Of a stretch of 64,000 nt of DNA, positions 24,477-61,219 are shown piece after piece; position 1 is the first letter of the stretch, and each line of letters starts with the position of its first letter. Under the pieces are notes generated by a model. The model saw only the letters and a program-made list of their open reading frames with translations. It did not search any database and was not told the origin of the DNA. The stretch comes from an uncultured Chloroflexia bacterium. Its GTDB lineage: Bacteria > Chloroflexota > Chloroflexia > QHBQ01 > JAICKM01. Where the stretch lies: NCBI GenBank assembly GCA_963784695.1, contig CAWARZ010000002.1, forward strand, positions 891,680 to 955,679, written 5' to 3'. Position numbers and translations under genes: made by a program.

Positions 24477-26321
24477 ATGCACGTAGTGCGTAACCTGGCC
24501 GGATCCCGCGTGGTGGGCCTCATCCTGCTGGCCCTGCTGGTGGTGCCCGTCGCGGGCCTGCCTGCCGCTCCGGCCGCTGCGGCGACCCAGGTGCCCGGCA
24601 ACTGGGAAAAAGGGTTCGTCATGATCGGCTACGCGGCGAACCCCTACAACCCGGCCAACGTCCCCGCCGCGCTCGCCAAGCTACACGACACGGGCGCCAA
24701 CATCGTCGCGCTCGCCCCGATCTGGTTCATGACCGACCCCAACGCCACGACGATGGCCCCCGTGCCCGCGCGCGGCACCCCCTCCGACGACTCGCTGGTC
24801 GCCGCGATCCAGGAGGCGCATCGCCAGGGCCTGCGCGTGATGCTGCGGCCCTATATCGACCTGGTCGACGGGAGCTGGCGTGCCCAGATCACGCCCAGCA
24901 ACCCCAGTGCCTGGTTCGCCAACTACCAGGCCTTCCTCGACCACTACCTTGACATCGCGAATAGCCAGGGGGTCGAGGAGTTCACGGTCGGCGTCGAGCT
25001 GATCAGCATGACCCAGCCGCAGTACGCGAATCAGTGGCGGGCGCTGATCGCCCACGTGCGCAGCCGCTACAACGGCACCCTCACCTACTCGGCCAACTGG
25101 GGCAAGCACACCGACAACGAATATAAGCAGATCACCTGGTGGGACGCGCTCGACTATATCGGTCTGTCGGCCTACTTCCCCCTCTCGCTGAACAACGTGC
25201 CCAGCGCCGACGCGCTCGTGCAGGGCTGGACGCACTACACCGACCAGGTCGGACAGACGTATGACTGGGTGAGCGAGATCAAGGCGACCGCCGACCAGTA
25301 CCACAAACCCGTCGTCTTCACCGAGATCGGCTTCGGCTCCTACGCGAACTCGCCCGCCCGCTGGGACGAGACCGCCGAGACGAATCAGCTGAGCCTGGCC
25401 ACCCAGGAGCACGCCGTGGCAGCCACCTTGCAGGTCTGGAGCCAGCAGCCCTGGTTCCACGGCGTCTTCTGGTGGCACTGGGAGCCCTACGTCGGCGCCG
25501 GAGGCGCGCAAGACCCCACCGACACGCTGAACAACAAGCCCGCCGTGGCCACGATCACGCAGTGGTTTGGCGGGGCGGCTCCTCCGCCCACCGCCGCGCC
25601 CACCCCACCGGCGGGGCCCACTCCGCCGCCGGCCACCCCGCCGCCGGGCCCGCCCCAGCAGCCGCCGTCGCAGCCCGTGCCACCTGGCCCGGTGCACCCG
25701 GCCCCCGCGCCCGGCAGCGCCGGGGTGAACAACGCGGCGTTCGCCGCCATGCCCTCGCCCGGCCCGGATACCGACTCGCAGGTCTACTTCCCGCAGACGG
25801 GCCACATCCTGCGCGCCGAGTTCCTGGCGTACTGGCGCAGCCACGGCGGTCTGGCGCAATTCGGCTATCCGATCTCCGAAGCCTACCAGGAGACGAACCC
25901 GACCGACGGCAAAGTCTACATCGTCCAGTACTTCGAGCGGCAGCGCTTCGAGTACCACCCCGAGCTCCCACCGGCCTTCCACGTGGAGCTCGGGCTGCTG
26001 GGCGTGGCCCTGGTGCACGGGCAGAGCAGCGGGCCGTACGCGACGGTGCCCTCGCCCGGCCCGGACACGGCCGACCGGGTATACTTCTCCCAGACCGGCC
26101 ACACCTTGAGCGGGGCCTTCCTGACCTACTGGCGCGGCCACGGCGGGCTGCCGATGTTCGGCTACCCGCTCAGCGAGCCGTTCTCCGAGGTCTCAAGCAC
26201 CGACCACAAGACGTACACCGTGCAGTATTTCGAGCGCGCGCGCTTCGAACTGCATCCGGAGAACAACCCGCCGTTCAACGTGCTGCTCGGCTTCCTCGGC
26301 CACTGGTACGCCGGCAAGTAG
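24477..26321 (+). CDS. Secreted TIM-barrel glycoside hydrolase (GH5/GH113-like) with a Pro-rich linker and C-terminal tandem LGFP repeats.
   Basis: Signal peptide. Catalytic-like VVFTEIGF. PPPTAAPTPP linker. Two approx 95-aa units, each with ...YW.SHGGLAQFGYPISEAY...DGKVY.VQYFERARFE.HPE (LGFP-type). Promoter TTGCGC-17-TATACT and RBS GAGAGGAG upstream. Confidence 0.75.
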   Translation: MHVVRNLAGSRVVGLILLALLVVPVAGLPAAPAAAATQVPGNWEKGFVMIGYAANPYNPANVPAALAKLHDTGANIVALAPIWFMTDPNATTMAPVPARGTPSDDSLVAAIQEAHRQGLRVMLRPYIDLVDGSWRAQITPSNPSAWFANYQAFLDHYLDIANSQGVEEFTVGVELISMTQPQYANQWRALIAHVRSRYNGTLTYSANWGKHTDNEYKQITWWDALDYIGLSAYFPLSLNNVPSADALVQGWTHYTDQVGQTYDWVSEIKATADQYHKPVVFTEIGFGSYANSPARWDETAETNQLSLATQEHAVAATLQVWSQQPWFHGVFWWHWEPYVGAGGAQDPTDTLNNKPAVATITQWFGGAAPPPTAAPTPPAGPTPPPATPPPGPPQQPPSQPVPPGPVHPAPAPGSAGVNNAAFAAMPSPGPDTDSQVYFPQTGHILRAEFLAYWRSHGGLAQFGYPISEAYQETNPTDGKVYIVQYFERQRFEYHPELPPAFHVELGLLGVALVHGQSSGPYATVPSPGPDTADRVYFSQTGHTLSGAFLTYWRGHGGLPMFGYPLSEPFSEVSSTDHKTYTVQYFERARFELHPENNPPFNVLLGFLGHWYAGK

Positions 26322-37368: not shown

Positions 37369-38303
37369 CGATGGCGCCTGCCTTTGCACATCGCACACGC
37401 TCTGCGGATCCTCGGCCTGCTGGCGCTCGCGGCGCTCAGCCTGTCGTTCGCCCCGGCCGGACTCGCCCAGGGTACTTCGCACTACTTCCCTGAGACCAAG
37501 CACACCGTCAGCGGCATCTTCTGGCAGTACTGGCAGAGCCACGGCGGCCTGGCCCAGCAGGGCTACCCGATCTCGGACGAGATCCAGGAGAAGTCCGACC
37601 TGGACGGCAAGGTCTACACGGTGCAGTACTTCGAGCGTGCGGTCTTTGAGCGCCACCCCGAGAACGCGGGCACCCCCTTCGAGGTGCTCCTGAGCCAAGC
37701 TCGGCACCACGCGCTACAAGGCCCGCTACCCGCAGGGCGCCCCCGGCCAGCACGCGAGCACCGACCAACCCGCGCTTCTTCCCCGAGACGAAGCACACCG
37801 TCGGCGGCGACTTCCGCACCTACTGGGAGGCGCACGGCGGGCTGGCCCAGCAGGGCTACCCCATCTCCGACGAGTTCCGCGAAGTGAGCCCGACCGACGG
37901 CAAATCCTACACCGTGCAATACTTCGAGCGCGCGGTCTTCGAGCGCCATCCCGAGAACGCCGGCACGCCCTTCGCGGTGCTCCTCTCGCAGCTGGGCACC
38001 TTCCAATACGCCGCGCGCCATCCCGCCGCGAAGCCGAGCCCCACCCCGGCCGCGGGCGTCGTCTTCGTCAAGGAGTTCGACTTCGACTTCGCGCCGAAGG
38101 TGATCACGATCCCGGTGGGCACCAAGGTCATCTGGACCAACGACGGCCCGACTGATCATACCGTCGCGGATCAGGACGTCAACTGGTCCTCCGACATCCT
38201 GCATGCCGGGGATTCCTACAGCCACGTCTTCACGCAGCGCGGCACCATCACCGTCATCTGCACCCTGCATCCCGAGATGGTTATGACGGTGATCGTGCAG
38301 TGA
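37369..38303 (+). CDS. Secreted protein with two LGFP-type repeat units plus a C-terminal cupredoxin (plastocyanin/pseudoazurin-like) domain. About three +1 frameshifts (near 37372, 37700 and 37790).
   Basis: RBS GGAAAGGA. Signal peptide LHIAHALRILGLLALAALSLSFAPAGLA. Repeats YFPETKHTVSGIFWQYWQSHGGLAQQGYPISDE...YTVQYFERAVFERHPEN, twice. Cupredoxin ligands H (PTDHTV), C..H..M (ICTLHPEMVM). Confidence 0.65.
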
Positions 38304-39639: not shown

Positions 39640-40620
39640 GGGTCCCACCACCGCGCGCACGATCGCACGGCTGCGGGAGCAAGCCCCGCCCCGCAGGCCC
39701 CCACACCTCCCCGCCTGCCAGAAGCCGGGCTCGTCTGTAGGAGGGGGCTCCGCCCCGCGACAACCCTCCCCGCAAGACTCCGCCCGATAAGCATCCCGCC
39801 GCCGGCCCGCCATGCGGGGCGCCGGGATGCGGGCACGGGGCAGCGATTCGGCTGCCGAGGAGCCGCCCGGGCGCGCGTTGCCCGGCGGCTAAAGCCGCGG
39901 GCAACAACGACAAAGCCCCCTGCGGGGGCTGGGACGACGATTCGGCCGGGCGTACGCCGGGCTCGTCTGTAGCAGAGGGCCGCCGCCCCGCGACGCGCCG
40001 CCCCAAGATCGTGCCCTCCGAGCACCGGGATGCCCGTGTAGGGGCGACCCCTGTGGTCGCCCGGCCGCCCCAAGACTCAGCCGGCGACCAGCCGGGATGC
40101 CGGGGCGGCGGGGCGGCGGCCCTCACCCCCGGCCCCTCTCCCGAGTTCGGGAGAGGGGAGCACATGTTGGCCTGAGGTAACCGGGATGCCGGGGCGGGGC
40201 GGGGCCGGGCCCGCCCCCGACCGGCCGGCATCTCCCGTCTTCCCGACAACCACCGCTCCTACGTCGTCACCATCGTCACCATGGCGTGATTCCGGCTAAT
40301 AGCAGGGCAAAGCAGGGTGACGACCCCGGTGTCGCCGTGCGGTCGCGGCGCGTCACCACCCGCGTCACCCGCGCACCGCCACCGGGACGCCGCGTCTGTG
40401 GGAGCCGGCTCAGCCCGGCGAGGCCCCCGCACCGCTCGGCCGAAAGGAAGCCCCGATCGTCTGTAGGAGGGGGCTCCGCCCCGCGAGGATCTCGCCCCAC
40501 CGCGCGGCCTGCGATACGCCGGGATGCAGGCCGGACATGCGGGCATGCGCCGGCGCGGCTCTGCCGCATTCCCGGTGCCCTCTGGGCGCGGCTCGTTCCC
40601 CCACCACCCCGGCCCGCCTC
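39640..40620. repeat. Noncoding block of approx 1 kb, dense in stable hairpins and short dispersed repeats.
   Basis: Three copies of GTCTGTAG[GC]AG[AG]GGGC[TC]CCGCCCCGCGA (approx 39733, 39967, 40459). Five copies of CCGGGATGC[CAG]. Hairpins include TTGCCCGGCGGC-TAAA-GCCGCGGGCAA, AGCCCCC-TGC-GGGGGCT, CCCCTCTCCC-GAGTTC-GGGAGAGGGG and GGGGCGACC-CCTGT-GGTCGCCC. No ORF has coding-like codon usage. Confidence 0.5.
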
Positions 40621-53268: not shown

Positions 53269-53395
53269 GCTGCTTGCTCTCCTTTGATACTGGCATCCAA
53301 CGGCGGCCGGCGGGTGGTGAGGCCGCGGCCAGGCCGGGTACGAAGCAAAGCCCCGAGCTATCAGGAGATAGCTGGGGCCTGCTAGCTTGCGACGG

Positions 53396-53468
53396 AGCCC
53401 ACGACCAGACTTGAACTGGTGACCCCGTTCTTACCAAGAACGTGCTCTACCAACTGAGCTACGTGGGC
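53396..53468 (-). tRNA. tRNA-Thr (anticodon GGT).
   Basis: GCCCACG acceptor, anticodon loop TTGGTAA. Confidence 0.9.
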
Positions 53469-53473
53469 CCGGG

Positions 53474-53557
53474 TGGGCAGGGAAGGATTCGAACCTCCGT
53501 AGGCATTACGCCGACTGGTTTACAGCCAGTTCCGATTGGCCACTCCGGCACCTGCCC
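53474..53557 (-). tRNA. tRNA-Tyr (anticodon GTA), long variable arm.
   Basis: GGGCAGG acceptor, anticodon loop CTGTAAA, extended V-arm. Confidence 0.9.
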
Positions 53558-53572
53558 GAGCTATGACGAGGG

Positions 53573-53645
53573 AGCCGACGGTGGGACTCGAACCCGCAAC
53601 CACCTGTTTACAAAACAGGAGCTCTGCCAATTGAGCTACGTCGGC
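53573..53645 (-). tRNA. tRNA-Thr (anticodon TGT).
   Basis: GCCGACG acceptor, anticodon loop TTTGTAA. Confidence 0.9.
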
Positions 53646-53708
53646 ACGAGTGCCTGGTAGGGTCCGTAACCCGCTGCTTTCCCCGCACACCTTTGTGGCG
53701 TGCACCGG

Positions 53709-53737
53709 ATTATACTATATCGCCCTACCAATGTCAA
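53709..53737 (-). promoter_or_regulatory. Consensus promoter TTGACA-17-TATAAT for the tRNA(Thr-Tyr-Thr)-tuf operon.
   Basis: Minus strand: GCTTGACATTGGTAGGGCGATATAGTATAATCCGG. Confidence 0.6.
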
Positions 53738-53867: not shown

Positions 53868-55258
53868 TCAGCCGTGCCGCTGTCGATAAGCGTAGGCGCG
53901 GCGAAAGTGCGCGCTCGCGGCTGCGGGCTCGCCCCAGGTCAGCAAGAGCTCGCCGTAATCGAACTCGATCTCGGCCTGTGTCTCGGCATACTCCGCGTGC
54001 CTGAGCACGTCCAGCGCCTGATCGAGCAGCGCCGTGGCGTCCGCCCGCCGGCCGCCCGCCGCCGCCACCAGGCCGGCCGTGCGCAGCGCGCGCCCGAACG
54101 TGCGGACCGCGTGCGCCTGCCCCTGCCGGTCGCCCGGATCCTGCCCGGCATAGCCCGCGGCGCCCTCCGTAAGGCAGCGGTTCGCGTGGGCCACCGCCGC
54201 GGCGAGCCGGCCGCGCTTCAGCTCCAGGCGGGCGTAGTGCTCATACAGGACGCTGCACGCCAAGGCGTCGCCCGCGGCCTCCAGCGTCTCGGCCGCCGGC
54301 ATCCAGCAGCCCGGCCGCGGCCTCATAGGAGCCGCGCAGGGTCTCGATCTCGGCCAGGTTGACCCGCATCTGCGCCACCGCCCGAGCGTCTCCGGTCGCC
54401 TCCAGCGCCTCCAGGGCCTGCCGGCCATACAGCACGGCGCGCACCAGATCCTCCTTGGCCTTGTGGGCCAGGCTCAATCCCCAGTAGATCCCGGCGCGAC
54501 GCTCGCTGTTCGTGGTGTCCTGCAGCAGATCGAGCGACTCCTGGTAGAGCGCGATCGCTTGATCCAGGTCGCCCAGGGCCCAGCAATCGTTGGCCAGATT
54601 GGTGTAGATAATCAGCTTCAGATTCAGGCGCTTGACGACCCCGCGCCGGATCGCATGCGAGACACGCCTGGTGCTGCTCCAGTGCCTGCCGGGCCATATC
54701 CTGCTCATAGTAGGCCAGCCCGATCAGGTTGCGCACCCGCTCCACGTCTTCCGCTCCGTCGTCCAGCTGCCCCGCCAGCGTCAGCGCCTCCGCCAGATCG
54801 GCCTGGGCCGCCGCGGGCGCGCCCGTCCGCATGGCCGCGGCCGCCCGGACATAGTGGAAGCGATAGCGCGTGCGCGGACCGAGCGCCGCCAGATGCGCAC
54901 CGGCCCCCGCCTGAATCGCGTCGATCAGCTGCGCCGCCTCGGCGGGCCGCCCCGCGTCGACGCGCGCCTTGGCGTGGTCCAGCTGATATGCCACGTCTTC
55001 GTCCAGGGCGGCGAGATCCGGGGGACGGTCGAGCGGCGCGGCAGGCGGCGCCAGGGCGGCGGGCGGGATGGCCAGCCGTTCGGCCAGCAGATCAAGCACC
55101 AGGCGGGAGGGGATGAGAGCGCCTGCCTCGACCGCCTCCACGTAACGGGCGGACAGCCAGGGCCGGCCCAGGTCCGCGGCCGCGATGCCCCGTTGCCGGC
55201 GCAGCGCCTGCACCTGCGCGCCGAGCGCCTGCGCCGCCGCGTGGTCGCCACTGTCCAT
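53868..55258 (-). CDS. XRE-type HTH plus TPR-repeat transcriptional regulator. Two +1 frameshifts (approx 54330..54440 and approx 54700).
   Basis: N-terminal HTH (LRRQRGIAAADLGRPWLSARYVEAVE); TPR-like helices spread over three successive frames. Confidence 0.65.
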
Positions 55259-55299
55259 ACGTCTGTACTCCTGCGCGACAGAGCCCGAAAGCAGTCGTC

Positions 55300-55450
55300 C
55301 GGGGCGCTCCCGGCGCGCGGCATCCTCAGCCCGCGGCCGCCGCCCGCTGGCGCAATACCCTGTACAGCACCGCCGATCCCGCCACCGAGGCGTTTAGCGA
55401 CTCGATCTGCCCGTGCATCGGCAGCGCCGGCGCGCCGTCGCACCGCGCCC
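55300..55450 (-). repeat. Duplicated fragment of the rlmB 3' end (approx 150 bp, approx 90% identical to 56222..56370).
   Basis: Encodes ...CDGAPALPMHGQIESLNASVAGSAVLYRVLRQRAAAAG* with nothing rlmB-like upstream. Confidence 0.6.
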
Positions 55451-55541
55451 GTCCAGCCGCGAGCCCGGTCCGTGCGGTATAATCAGCACGGGACCCCATC
55501 GAGCCGCGCCGCGGCAACGCGGCGGTGCACGGAAGGAGCGC

Positions 55542-55772
55542 GCAATGCCTACCCGACCGATTACCATCCAGGTGGACTCCGCAGCCGCCGATGCCTTCGA
55601 CGCGGCGTCTGCCGATCAACGGCGGAAGCTGGAGGTCTTGCTCAGCTTGCGCCTGACAGAGATTACGCAGACGCAGGAGTCCTTGGCGCAGGTCATGGAC
55701 GAGATCGGCCGTACTGCCCATGACCGCGGGATGACGCCTGAGCTATTGCAGACGCTCCTCGATGAGTCCTAA
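55542..55772 (+). CDS. Putative type II antitoxin (small acidic helical protein).
   Basis: MPTRPITIQVDSAAADAFDAASADQRRKLEVLLSLRL...; overlaps the toxin by 11 bp. A TATAAT box within an inverted repeat lies upstream. Confidence 0.55.
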   Translation, partial: AMPTRPITIQVDSAAADAFDAASADQRRKLEVLLSLRLTEITQTQESLAQVMDEIGRTAHDRGMTPELLQTLLDES

Positions 55773-56190
55773 CAGGCCGGCCTATGTCGTCGACACGAAC
55801 GTTATCGTAAGCGCGCTCTTGTTACCGGGCGGAATTCCCCGCCAAGCGTTGGATGCCGCGCGGGCTGACGGCGACCTTCTGGTCTCGCGAGCCTTGCTTT
55901 TGGAGCTAGACGCGGTGCTGCGCCGGCCCAAGTTCGACCGCTATCTGCTGCCCCAGGAGCGGTCGCGCTTCTTCATTGCGCTTGTGCGCGAGTCACGGCT
56001 GGTCGAGGTCACCGCTCACGTCGATGCATGCCGCGATCCAAAGGACAACGCGATCCTGGAGCTGGCCGCCGATGGAGGAGCGACTCACATTATTACCGGC
56101 GACTCCGATCTGCTGACGCTCGGTAGCTTCCAGGGCACGGCAATTCTGACCCCGGAGCGTTTCCTGCACTACCGCGCCCACCTCACGTAG
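55762..56190 (+). CDS. vapC: PIN-domain ribonuclease toxin (VapC-like).
   Basis: AYVVDTNVIVSALL (Asp1), ...ELAADGGATHIITGDSDLL (conserved acidic residues). Confidence 0.8.
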   Translation: MSPNRPAYVVDTNVIVSALLLPGGIPRQALDAARADGDLLVSRALLLELDAVLRRPKFDRYLLPQERSRFFIALVRESRLVEVTAHVDACRDPKDNAILELAADGGATHIITGDSDLLTLGSFQGTAILTPERFLHYRAHLT

Positions 56191-56247
56191 CGGCAAGGCA
56201 TGCACGATCGGCAACGGCCCGTGGGGCGCTCCCGGCGCGCGGCATCC

Positions 56248-57147
56248 TCAGCCCGCGGCCGCCTCCCGCTGGCGCAACACCTCGTACAGCACCACCGATC
56301 CCGCGACCGAGGCGTTTAGCGACTCGATCTGCCCGTGCATTGGCAAGGCCAGCGCGCCGTCGCAGCGCTTGCGCACCAGCGCGCTCACCCCCTTGCCCTC
56401 CGACCCGACCACGAGGCCGAGCGGCCCGCGCAGGTCAGCCTGCCCGATCGGCGTCGCCTCGGCGTCGCCCGCCAGCGCGTAGACCCATAGCCCCGTCTCG
56501 CGCTTCAGCTGTTCGACCGCACGCGCGATGTTCGCCACGTGGGCGACGCGCAGGTACTCCACCGCGCCCGACGACGCGTTCGCCACGGCCGGCGTGACCC
56601 CCACGGCGTGGTGCTCAGGCAGCACGACCCCGGTGACGCCGACGGCTTCCGCTGTGCGCAGCAGCGTGCCGAAGTTCTGCGGGTCCTGCAGGCTGTCGAG
56701 GATCAACAGCAACGCGCGCGGACCCGCCGCGTTCACCCGCTCCACCAGGACGGTCCAATCCGTATAGTGGAAGTCGGCGACCAGTGCGGCGACGCCCTGG
56801 TGGTTGGCGCCGTTCGTCAGCTTGTCGAGCCGCTCGCCCTGCACCTCGTCGATCGGGATGCCGCGCTGCCGCGCCAGCTGCACGAGGCTCTCCAGCGGCG
56901 CGCGCCCGGCCAGGTGGACCGTACGCCGCTCGGCGCGCGTCGGTTCGGCAGGCAGCGCCCGCCCGCGCCCGCTCGCCGCGCCCGGGCGTCCCCCTTTGGC
57001 CGGCGGCGCATTGCCGCGACGGCCCCGTGGGGGGCCGGAGGGCGCGGGCTTCGGCGCGGCAGGCTGCGCCACGTAGAGACGCATCATTTTGCGGCCGGCG
57101 CGCAGCGCCTCGCGCACCGCGTTCCGCCCGTAGAGGAGGTCGGTCAT
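56248..57147 (-). CDS. rlmB: 23S rRNA (guanosine-2'-O)-methyltransferase RlmB (SpoU/TrmH family), with a low-complexity N-terminal insert.
   Basis: SpoU_sub_bind plus SpoU methylase motifs (LLILDSLQDPQNFGTLLRTAEA, LVVGSEGKGVS, MHGQIESLNASVAGSVVLYE). Confidence 0.85.
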   Translation of the reverse strand: MTDLLYGRNAVREALRAGRKMMRLYVAQPAAPKPAPSGPPRGRRGNAPPAKGGRPGAASGRGRALPAEPTRAERRTVHLAGRAPLESLVQLARQRGIPIDEVQGERLDKLTNGANHQGVAALVADFHYTDWTVLVERVNAAGPRALLLILDSLQDPQNFGTLLRTAEAVGVTGVVLPEHHAVGVTPAVANASSGAVEYLRVAHVANIARAVEQLKRETGLWVYALAGDAEATPIGQADLRGPLGLVVGSEGKGVSALVRKRCDGALALPMHGQIESLNASVAGSVVLYEVLRQREAAAG

Positions 57148-58972: not shown

Positions 58973-61219
58973 ATGCCTGATTCCCTCGCTCAGCTGCTCG
59001 ACGCCCGCCTGTCCGTGCTCGCCGCGCGTTGGCCGCCCGTCGCGGGCGCCGAGGGCGACGCGCTCCGCAACCCCCTGGCGGCGCCCTTCGGGCCGCTCCA
59101 CTATTCCCAGATCCTGGAAGCGGTCCACACGACCGACCGCAGCGCCTGGCTCACCCAGGTGCGCCGGGCGGGCGCGGCGCGCGCCGCGGCCGGCACCGCC
59201 ATCCCCATCCTGGTCACCGAGGCGCTCAGCTGCCTGCACACGGTGCGCCACGTCGTCCTCGGCCCCCCACGCGACGGCGACGAGGCGCCCGCCGCCGTCT
59301 CCCAACAGCTGGATACGCTGGAGACGGAGATCCTGTCCGCGCTGCTCAACGGCTACGTCGAAGGCCAGGAGCGCCGCGCCGACGAACAGCGGCTGGCGCT
59401 GGAGGAAGTCGGCGCGCTCTTCAAGATTAACTCGGCCGCCAACTCCACGCTCGACTTCGACCAGGTGCTCGACCGCGTCGTCGAGCACGTCGCCGACGCC
59501 ATGCTCACCGATATCTGCTCCCTCTTCATCTACGAGCAGGAGATCGATCAGCTGGTGCTGCGCGCCACGCGCGGCCTGGCCCCCGAGATGGTGGGCCGCG
59601 TGCGCCTGCGCCTGGGCGAGGGCATCACCGGCTGGGCCGCCCGCGCCGGCAAGCCCCTGGCCCTCAGCGACGGCTGGAGGGACGAGCGCTTCCTGCACGT
59701 GCCCGGCGTCGGCGAGGAAGGCACCCGGGCCATCCTGGCCGTGCCCATCGTGCTCTACACCAAGCTCAAGCTGGTCGGCGTCATCACGATCCAGAGCTAC
59801 GACGCGCGCCATTTCACCGAGCGCGACATCCGCTTCCTCGAGACGGTGGCCGGCGAGGTCGCCATCGCCATCGAGAACGCGCGTCTGCACCGCGACACCG
59901 ACGACCGCCTGCGCCAGAAGGTGGGCGAGATGACGATCCTGCAGGGCGTCTCGGCCAGCATCGCCGCGACACTCGACCTGCACGACGTGGCCCGCCTCAT
60001 CGCCAGCGAGGCGGTGCACCTCATGAGCGCCGATGCCTCCCTGCTCTACGAGTTCCGGGGCCAGCAGCTAACGCCGACCGCCACGTTCGGCCTGCTGGCC
60101 GAGGAGGGCCACCGCGGCGAGCCGCCGCAGCCGCCGGCCGCCACCGCGCCGCTACCCACGCTCGATCCCGAGACGAGCGTGATCGCCCGCGCCGTGCTCG
60201 CCGGCCGGCCGGTGATCGTGGACCTCCACGCCGGCAACAGCCCCGAATCCGGCCAGCTGCTCCACAAGATCGCCGACGACCCCAGCCTCAGCTTGCCGGG
60301 CATCGGCATGGACAGCGTCACCCCCATCCGCATCGGCGCCGATCCCGGCGGCCTGCCCTTCGCCACCCAGTTGTGCGTGCCACTGCTCGCACCCCGCAGT
60401 ATTGTCGGCGGCATCTGCATCTACAGCCGCACCCCGCGCGGCTTCAGCGAGGAGCAGATCAGCCTGTTGCTGGCCTTCGCCCGCGAGGGCGCCATCGCCA
60501 TCGAGAACGCGCACCTGTACGAGGAGGCGCGGCACGGCATGGAGATGCAGGCGCTGCTGCTGCGCGAGATGCACCATCGCGTGCGCAACAACCTCCAGCG
60601 CACGGCCTCCCTGCTGCGCATGCAGGCCCACCGCCTGCCCGAGGACAACCCCGCCCGCCGCGCCCTGCAGGAGAGCGTGATCCGCGTGCAATCGATCGCC
60701 CGCGTGCACGACCTGCTCTCGCGCGGCGAGGTCGGCCTGACCGAGGTCGGAGCCGTCGCTAACCTCGCCTGTGAGGTGGTGAACAACACGCTCGGCCGGC
60801 CCGACCTGCGCGTCCGCTGGCACGTCGAGCCCGCGCGCCTGACGCTCTCCTCGCGCGAGGCCTTCCCGCTCACCCTGCTGCTCACCGAGTTGCTCTCGAA
60901 CTCCGTACTGCACGGCTTCGCCGGGCGCGACGAGGGCCAGGTGCGCATCCAGGCCACACGCGCGCGCGACGAGCTCGTGCTGACCATCCGCGACAATGGC
61001 CAGGGCGTGCCGTCCGACTTCGACAGCAACCGCGATGCCCACCTCGGCCTCGAGGTCGTCCGCCGCCTCGGCGAGCAAGAGCTCGGCGGCTCCGTCTCGA
61101 TCGGCCCGAACCCGGAGGGCGCCGGCACGCAGACTGTGCTGCGCTTCCCCTATCAGCCGCCGGCCGAGCCCGATCCCGCCGACGTGCTCGACCAGCCGGT
61201 CGCCTGGATCGCGACGTGA
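58973..61219 (+). CDS. Cytoplasmic GAF-GAF sensor histidine kinase of the HisKA_2 (HWE-like) type.
   Basis: Two GAF domains, H-box MHHRVRNNLQ, HATPase_c. Confidence 0.85.
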   Translation: MPDSLAQLLDARLSVLAARWPPVAGAEGDALRNPLAAPFGPLHYSQILEAVHTTDRSAWLTQVRRAGAARAAAGTAIPILVTEALSCLHTVRHVVLGPPRDGDEAPAAVSQQLDTLETEILSALLNGYVEGQERRADEQRLALEEVGALFKINSAANSTLDFDQVLDRVVEHVADAMLTDICSLFIYEQEIDQLVLRATRGLAPEMVGRVRLRLGEGITGWAARAGKPLALSDGWRDERFLHVPGVGEEGTRAILAVPIVLYTKLKLVGVITIQSYDARHFTERDIRFLETVAGEVAIAIENARLHRDTDDRLRQKVGEMTILQGVSASIAATLDLHDVARLIASEAVHLMSADASLLYEFRGQQLTPTATFGLLAEEGHRGEPPQPPAATAPLPTLDPETSVIARAVLAGRPVIVDLHAGNSPESGQLLHKIADDPSLSLPGIGMDSVTPIRIGADPGGLPFATQLCVPLLAPRSIVGGICIYSRTPRGFSEEQISLLLAFAREGAIAIENAHLYEEARHGMEMQALLLREMHHRVRNNLQRTASLLRMQAHRLPEDNPARRALQESVIRVQSIARVHDLLSRGEVGLTEVGAVANLACEVVNNTLGRPDLRVRWHVEPARLTLSSREAFPLTLLLTELLSNSVLHGFAGRDEGQVRIQATRARDELVLTIRDNGQGVPSDFDSNRDAHLGLEVVRRLGEQELGGSVSIGPNPEGAGTQTVLRFPYQPPAEPDPADVLDQPVAWIAT

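Follow-up and report, generated by a model that had tools for sequence, protein, structure and literature searches.

A VapBC-like toxin-antitoxin cassette between two copies of the rlmB 3′ end in an uncultured Chloroflexia bacterium

How can a small toxin-antitoxin (TA) cassette come to lie directly behind a conserved rRNA methyltransferase gene, with the 3′ end of that gene on both of its sides, and leave the gene itself whole? This question is raised by a locus in a 64,000-nucleotide (nt) stretch of contig CAWARZ010000002.1 (GenBank assembly GCA_963784695.1, positions 891,680 to 955,679) from an uncultured Chloroflexia bacterium, hereafter called the window. An earlier note, made from the sequence alone, had pointed to a vapBC-like pair of genes next to rlmB and to a direct duplication of the rlmB 3′ end around it. 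Our analysis indicates that the TA cassette was probably added at a variable hotspot by recombinational, additive insertion, not by transposition. The features of the locus are collected in Table 1.

Table 1. Coordinates of features at the rlmB locus, in positions of the window (aa, amino acids).
Feature	Position	Strand	Basis or remarks
Operon of tRNA-Thr(tgt), tRNA-Tyr and tRNA-Thr(ggt)	53394..53737	-	consensus TTGACA-17-TATAAT promoter
HTH(XRE-type)-TPR regulator gene, two frameshifts	53868..55258	-	TPR matches in three reading frames
Copy A, orphan duplicate of the rlmB 3′ end, decaying	55301..55446	-	40 codons and stop 55326-55446; 25 nt downstream 55301-55325
Cassette 5′ region	55447..55544	+	TATAAT -10 box, palindrome, half-site, Shine-Dalgarno
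Palindrome CCGTGC-GGTATAATCA-GCACGG (6 + N10 + 6)	55470-55491		extended imperfect arms 55467-55495
TATAAT -10 box within the palindrome	55478-55483		
Third GCACGG half-site	55527-55532		
Shine-Dalgarno AAGGAG, 6 nt before the antitoxin ATG	55533-55538		
Antitoxin gene, 75 aa, uncharacterised conserved family	55545..55772	+	homologues; position before PIN gene
Toxin gene, 142-aa PIN_3 (VapC-group) PIN-domain protein	55762..56190	+	PF13470, TIGR00305
Spacer, 32 nt, PIN stop to copy B	56191..56222	.	ends in GCCCGT
Copy B, functional rlmB 3′ end and 25 nt downstream	56223..56368	-	protein matches conserved C-terminus of relatives
rlmB, intact, 299 aa, 23S rRNA (guanosine-2′-O)-methyltransferase (Gm2251)	56248..57147	-	TIGR00186, SpoU_sub_bind, SpoU_methylase

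The duplication had been described as about 150 bp long and about 90% identical, and alignment gave 146 nt with 92% identity, at a spacing of 922 nt between the upstream copy A and the downstream copy B. A 32-mer from the core of the repeat occurs exactly twice in the window, while 0 occurrences were expected from 100 shuffles. Read on the minus strand, the repeat takes in the final 40 codons of rlmB with their stop codon and a further 25 nt beyond it; it is thus rlmB-derived, and both copies encode the last 40 or so RlmB residues, as the earlier note had it. Weak similarity possibly extends 3-15 nt further, past 55446/56368. Copy B, whose translation ends in RKRCDGALALPMHGQIESLNASVAGSVVLYEVLRQREAAAG before the stop codon, belongs to an intact rlmB: the protein was matched to TIGR00186 over residues 86-294 (E=3e-62, 210 bits against a cut-off of 160) and to SpoU_methylase (E=4e-38, above cut-off), and the SpoU_sub_bind domain is also present. 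Copy A, whose translation ends in RARCDGAPALPMHGQIESLNASVAGSAVLYRVLRQRAAAAG before its stop codon, is an orphan without a methyltransferase body. It showed only a weak match to the C-terminal part of SpoU_methylase, and it was aligned by tblastn to RlmB residues 259-293 with 89% identity. RlmB C-termini from 12 relatives were alignable with the repeat.

Two details of the repeat were observed in addition. Over the 41 nt nearest to the stop codon (55301-55341 / 56223-56263), which span the 25 downstream nt, the stop and the final 4-5 codons, the copies agree at 100%, where about 3 differences would be expected (P ~0.04); they differ by about 10% in the remainder. An RNA structure or terminator accounting for the perfect identity was looked for and none was found. 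The hexamer GCCCGT is located at both inner edges of the insert, after copy A (55448-55453) and before copy B (56217-56222). This pair could be microhomology or a junction signature, or it could be due to chance in 71%-GC DNA.

Comparison with the rlmB loci of related genomes, proposed in the earlier note as a check, separated the old parts of the locus from the new. In two relatives, L002 and L004, the tRNA operon begins about 150-200 nt past the rlmB stop codon, with no cassette in between; this tRNA-Thr/Tyr/Thr operon is the ancestral neighbour of rlmB. Against these two loci the window has about 2.4 kb extra, which consists of the TA cassette, copy A and the HTH(XRE)-TPR gene. The same arrangement in relatives would have spoken against an insertion, and none of 80 related rlmB loci carried the cassette downstream of rlmB; the HTH-TPR gene was likewise found in 0 of the 80, and rlmB was next to a homologous TA pair in 0 of 84 loci with homologous cassettes. 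Since neither set of loci combines rlmB with the TA pair, the cassette is lineage-specific. What follows rlmB in other relatives is a PepSY-like gene (L001), an ABM-like gene (L003) or a GNAT gene (L081), and these differing contents mark the spot as a hotspot, while the fmdB-rlmB synteny upstream is kept in most relatives. A cassette-free connection from rlmB to the tRNA genes was therefore obtained. A strict empty site was not, as the RlmB proteins of relatives are 66-79% identical to that of the window: the best GTDB representatives reached 66-68%, and no RlmB more than 79% identical was present among them or in 5.8 billion proteins. A degenerate 38-mer of the repeat gave 0 matches in metagenome contigs, and exact-sequence look-ups of the window's PIN and RlmB returned no match.

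By its sequence, the antitoxin-PIN pair is a VapBC-like type II TA module with an undescribed antitoxin family. The toxin was matched to PF13470 (E=2.5e-17, 64 bits, cut-off 27) and to TIGR00305, 'putative toxin-antitoxin system toxin component, PIN family' (E=4.9e-23, 82 bits, cut-off 29). When the toxin was aligned with 24 homologues, four of its acidic residues (D11, D92, D95 and D114) proved invariant and two more (E48 and D116) nearly so. PIN_3 proteins are assigned to the VapC group of the PIN-like superfamily and are typically TA toxins (PMC5499597). The open reading frame (ORF) given for the toxin in the earlier note agreed with ours, including the 11-nt overlap with the antitoxin ORF; for the antitoxin the end at 55772 was correct, and the start was moved from 55542 to the ATG at 55545. 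The search with family models that had been suggested for both proteins succeeded for the toxin and gave no family for the antitoxin, which had no match in Pfam, NCBIfam or PADLOC, and none at E<=0.1 to the described VapB families (AbrB, RHH_6, Phd/YefM, HTH). PADLOC defence-system models did not match the cassette either.

The antitoxin is nevertheless conserved. We found 34 homologues of 74-92 aa (most 75-76) with 47-62% identity, which share the pattern ITIQVD..AA.AF...RRKLE.LLSLRL...VMDEIG..A..RGMTPE.L. In the closest homologous cassette, L082, an antitoxin homologue immediately precedes the PIN homologue and overlaps it to the same extent, and it is also upstream in L163-L165. Metagenome contigs were searched for homologous cassettes with the PIN alignment, and of 81 loci at least 45 had a detectable antitoxin partner beside the PIN homologue. 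This conserved, overlapping partner upstream of a PIN_3/TIGR00305 toxin bears out the description of the cassette as vapBC-like. The AlphaFold2 model of the antitoxin (pLDDT 80) has an extended N-terminus followed by helices 12-20, 23-42, 47-60 and 65-74. The N-terminus with helices 12-20 and 23-42 is ribbon-helix-helix-like in this prediction, which would be in keeping with a head of that type that binds DNA and a tail that binds the toxin. The antitoxin had no match in PDB by fold or by sequence, and PDB contained no solved structure of any relative of the antitoxin or the PIN protein. The module thus resembles VapBC systems with PIN_3 (COG1569) toxins in its two small co-oriented genes, antitoxin first, here with an 11-nt overlap, and in a toxin that exceeds the PF13470 and TIGR00305 cut-offs and keeps the acidic residues. 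It differs in its antitoxin, which falls outside the described VapB families.

Upstream of the antitoxin, the inverted repeat containing TATAAT that the earlier note had reported was found as a palindrome over a -10 box, an arrangement expected for antitoxin autoregulation. TATAAT is 67 nt from the antitoxin ATG in the window and 68 nt in L082. A strict sigma-70 scan detected no -35/-10 pair in the cassette 5′ region, and the hexamer GCACGG is frequent, occurring 138 times in the window, so that the operator reading stays putative. We therefore regard the palindrome region as a candidate promoter and operator only. From what is known of the family, the antitoxin, alone or with the toxin, would bind the palindrome over the -10 box and repress the operon, and the labile antitoxin would neutralise the PIN ribonuclease (RNase). 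Both the RNase activity of the toxin and its neutralisation by the antitoxin are predictions. The cassette is convergent with rlmB, and the two stop codons are 57 nt apart. Neither a terminator nor a significant RNA structure was detected between the PIN and rlmB stops (z=+1.4 to +2.0 for the spacer and rlmB end), and antisense read-through between the two genes is possible.

The composition of the insert looks foreign, as would be the case for a horizontally acquired cassette. The 776 nt between the two copies have 64.7% GC compared to 71.1% for the window, which places them at the 4th percentile of 776-bp windows. GC content at third codon positions (GC3) was 0.78 for the antitoxin and 0.76 for the PIN gene, 0.87 for the HTH-TPR gene, and 0.91-0.94 for rlmB, tuf, an amidase gene and a GAF histidine-kinase gene (58973-61219). 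Composition therefore favours the TA cassette, not the HTH-TPR gene, as the newcomer.

The two copies also carry a record of time. They differ at 11 of 146 positions, 6 of which are synonymous and 5 non-synonymous. When polarised with 6 outgroups, every amino-acid difference proved to be a change on the side of copy A, namely L->P, V->A, E->R, E->A and, at the edge, K->A; 4 of its amino-acid changes fall at positions conserved in relatives. Among synonymous changes, 5 were derived in A, and 2 were derived in B, to the rare codons TTG and CCA. This corresponds to about 12 changes or about 9.5% per site on the A lineage, and to 2 synonymous changes or about 6% per synonymous site on the B lineage. 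Such rates fit two copies that were identical at their origin, after which the orphan drifted neutrally. The synonymous split and the outgroup polarisation together are suggestive of duplication in situ over import of a diverged allele. While the copies diverged, the TA ORFs remained intact and the HTH-TPR gene gained two frameshifts.

We propose the following course of events. An acquired two-gene type II TA cassette, consisting of a probable small DNA-binding antitoxin and a PIN_3/VapC-type ribonuclease toxin with an apparent promoter of its own, would have been added between rlmB and the tRNA-Thr/Tyr/Thr operon, so that the 776-nt insert came to have on either side the final 121 nt of rlmB together with the 25 nt that follow the gene. 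The gene would have been kept intact through copy B, and a redundant orphan, copy A, would have been left beside the old downstream gene. Three routes could give this outcome: a Campbell-type single crossover with a circularised fragment carrying short rlmB homology, homology-facilitated illegitimate recombination, or a template switch during replication. Any one of the three may have been the route taken. Afterwards, the orphan would have drifted neutrally and the HTH-TPR gene would have acquired its two frameshifts, with the TA genes staying intact. The toxin would be freed if the cassette were lost, as could happen when one 146-nt repeat recombines with the other, and post-segregational killing would thus be expected to disfavour deletion through the repeats. 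Release of the toxin on cassette loss would help explain how a deletable structure persisted until its repeats were 8% divergent.

Additive events of this kind, that is, homology-facilitated illegitimate recombination, Campbell-type insertion and merodiploids arising by transformation, leave duplicates of the anchor sequence of arbitrary length, flanking or stacked. Such arbitrary length matches duplicated gene ends, or 'seams', of 37, 128 and 146 nt, which we observed here and at homologous cassettes elsewhere. The GCCCGT hexamer is the sole hint of the process in the window itself; no donor, circular intermediate or microhomology signature is demonstrated there.

Cassette loci were also compared by a uniform test for flanking repeats, which covered flanks of at least 1 kb and direct matches at E<1e-8, with positions in rlmB loci as controls. 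Flanking direct repeats were present at 6 of 33 cassette loci compared to 3 of 209 control positions (Fisher p=2.6e-4). L156 (3471-6660) contains, in order, a sigma-54 response-regulator (ntrC-like) gene, a Phd/YefM and PIN_3 pair, orphan 3′ pieces first of ada and then of the regulator, parDE, and an intact ada. The ada piece (about 340 nt, 94%) keeps a whole ORF for the MGMT domain, and the regulator piece has 128 nt (98%). In L140, the cassette is followed by 37 nt duplicated from the 3′ terminus of a Type ISP restriction-modification gene (2042-2078 / 2710-2746); this piece is fused to the PIN ORF, to which it supplies the last 13 codons, and a second TA pair is located immediately downstream. 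In L106, nested duplications (about 100 nt) of a neighbouring gene and of an antitoxin start flank two PIN cassettes. The seams at homologous cassettes differ in length, target gene and orientation and have no recombinase nearby, and this variability favours general recombination over a dedicated recombinase.

A different organization was seen in L113 (1111-4256) and L087 (3105-3150, 4395-4440). There, cassettes homologous to that of the window are part of arrays of units of about 1 kb, which contain diverse small genes, several of them TA-like, and are separated by conserved 46-105-nt repeats; the repeat of L087 has a perfect 15-nt hairpin. No integrase was seen in these arrays within the DNA examined. 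They are possibly integron-like arrays or clusters of attC sites lacking an integron integrase (CALIN), a reading that stays plausible for these two distant loci. The window has a repeat of rlmB coding sequence, no attC-like palindrome and no array, and an integron cassette or attC site was rejected there for the lack of a structured palindrome and for the coding nature of the repeat.

Insertion of a mobile TA module with target duplication, or alternatively recombinational capture, had been suggested for the locus in the earlier note. The recombinational part of this suggestion is retained; the transposon-type duplication is not. A transposon or insertion sequence was rejected, since there is no transposase, the insert ends have no terminal inverted repeats, and a duplication of 146 nt is far too long. 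PIN_3 together with an RHH_6 antitoxin is a known passenger module of Tn3-family transposons (Lima-Mendez et al. 2020, PMC7157771). Those modules share with ours the toxin family, the compact mobile format and the upstream position of the antitoxin. However, the window has no transposase, resolvase, res site or terminal inverted repeat at the cassette, its antitoxin is not RHH_6 by Pfam, and where Tn3 elements duplicate 5 bp of target, here 146 nt of a host gene are duplicated.

Elements with site-specific integrases can also duplicate the end of a gene. Prophage e14 of E. coli K-12 is inserted in icd and leaves a 163-bp pseudo-icd′ (PMC6379469): the 3′ end of a housekeeping gene is entered, a duplicate end keeps the gene intact, and an orphan of similar size stays on the far side. 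Because such elements can produce the same picture, we kept as the main rival a remnant or non-autonomous derivative of an integrative element targeting the rlmB 3′ end, and consider it unlikely. Copy B would then be derived from the element and copy A would be the displaced original, with the repeats as attL and attR; everything except the addiction module would have been deleted, or the cassette would have been mobilised in trans, in a CIME-like manner (att sites, no integrase of its own). The direct repeats of a target gene 3′ end, of a size near that of pseudo-icd′ (PMC6379469), agree with this, as do the reconstituted rlmB and the 8% repeat divergence, which is possible between attP and attB arms. 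No integrase or recombinase was found in the insert, the two TA ORFs being the sole content of its 776 nt, whereas e14 measures 15 kb and encodes an integrase; nor did the 64-kb window contain a second copy of the cassette or a related element. A TA module is typically among the last things to survive when an island decays, but this reading would need the DNA to the left and right of the TA pair to have been neatly deleted. In addition, the comparable seams use different genes, lengths (37-146 nt) and orientations without a recombinase nearby, and the substitutions lie mostly on copy A, at rates that fit identical copies at the origin.

The order of events could also be the reverse, which we judge slightly less probable again than the site-specific remnant. 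Here the TA pair would already have been beside rlmB, and an rlmB′ piece (146 nt), 25 nt and the HTH-TPR gene would have come later from a related donor whose rlmB precedes HTH-TPR. This segment would have entered by homologous recombination within the highly conserved tRNA/tuf flank at one end, and by an illegitimate junction just before the TA promoter at the other. Such 'allele stacking' would follow from TA addiction disfavouring simple replacement. L156 has precisely this kind of structure, with its tandem PIN_3 TA and ParDE pairs split by orphan pieces of both flanking genes, and in L140 a second TA follows the orphan fragment; the HTH-TPR gene, too, is absent in relatives and has a GC3 (0.87) slightly below native values, and synonymous differences exceed strict neutrality. 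On the other hand, the TA cassette is the more foreign by composition (GC3 0.76-0.78), the changes in copy A hit invariant residues, so that substantial decay after the event would be needed anyway, and adjacency of rlmB with HTH-TPR or with the TA pair was absent from the other genomes and metagenome contigs examined. A false tandem, produced if the assembly had strung together the versions of a polymorphic locus from two strains, is very improbable. The source is a 2.6-Mb contig of the metagenome-assembled genome type, and the two frameshifts of HTH-TPR could be indel errors; yet the repeats are only 92% identical with decay confined to one copy, the junctions are unique sequence, the long neighbours (tuf, rlmB and the 748-aa GAF histidine-kinase gene at 58973-61219) are intact, and like structures occur in independent assemblies (L140, L156).

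Several points weigh against additive insertion of the cassette as we propose it. There is no close relative, the best RlmB being 79% identical, and the state before insertion is reconstructed from distant genomes. The HTH-TPR gene may have arrived either before or after the TA cassette. The controls in the flanking-repeat test were drawn from other taxa and loci; two of the six positives, L087 and L113, have inter-cassette repeats and not gene-end duplications; the 44-nt repeat of L134 falls in two RTX-like gene fragments; and the closer PIN homologues L163-L165, on long contigs, are without flanking repeats. Lastly, the 6:5 split of synonymous and non-synonymous differences is slightly rich in synonymous changes for neutral decay (p ~0.03 under a strict model, ~0.25 with constraint on copy B), which leaves room for a diverged donor allele as the source of the repeat.

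Additive insertion might be a general habit. At hotspots behind conserved genes, small TA cassettes may build up through additive recombination, leaving anchor 3′-end seams between successive cassettes, though we consider this doubtful as a general rule. If it is true, replacing or deleting a resident TA would be lethal by post-segregational killing, so that only additive events and undeleted repeats survive. The window, L156, L140 and L106 would then be four cases of recombinase-independent spread and retention of TA modules, and seams could be used to date and count TA acquisitions.

The genes around the cassette showed some further features. Copy A was placed 42 nt upstream of the start codon of the HTH-TPR gene. 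Homologues of this regulator have about 465 aa, and their alignments to the 311-aa ORF in the window all end near residue 200; the frame is broken near 54655 and at about 54330-54420. The gene is either a pseudogene or affected by two indel errors. In RlmB, residues ~27-80 form a low-complexity insertion rich in Pro, Gly, Arg and Ala, between the N-terminal segment and the SpoU substrate-binding domain. The length of this insertion varies in the clade, where the proteins of relatives have 299 to 386 aa. The tRNA operon has a perfect-consensus TTGACA-17-TATAAT promoter at 53737-53709 on the minus strand, conserved in sequence and position in L002 and L004, whose RlmB proteins are 66-68% identical to that of the window.

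Other repeats were seen elsewhere in the window. A 66-nt direct repeat (39695-39760 / 40421-40486) is 82% identical at a spacing of 726 nt, apparently non-coding and very GC-rich, and both of its copies end in CGTCTGTAGGAGGGGGCTCCGCCCCGCGA. A 181-nt unit occurs four times with 69-71% identity, in two pairs (25784-26261, 37482-37955) with about 295 nt within and 11.4 kb between pairs; these units are probably repeated protein domains in paralogous genes.

What is new here is modest: an undescribed antitoxin family and recurrent seams of variable length, as a chromosomal VapBC-like cassette with a gene-end duplication is itself of a known kind, and the understanding of TA systems is not overturned. 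The locus would be a natural example of how a selfish TA module enters the end of a gene with an essential function without harming that gene. Its orphan copy would serve as a built-in clock, with about 6-10% neutral divergence during which the TA pair stayed intact while the neighbouring regulator decayed. The antitoxin represents a conserved family of about 75 aa without a Pfam model, solved structure or annotation, and is a candidate addition to TA catalogues. Because gene-end seams recur around homologous cassettes, a systematic survey of them may show if addiction influences which recombination products persist at these hotspots.

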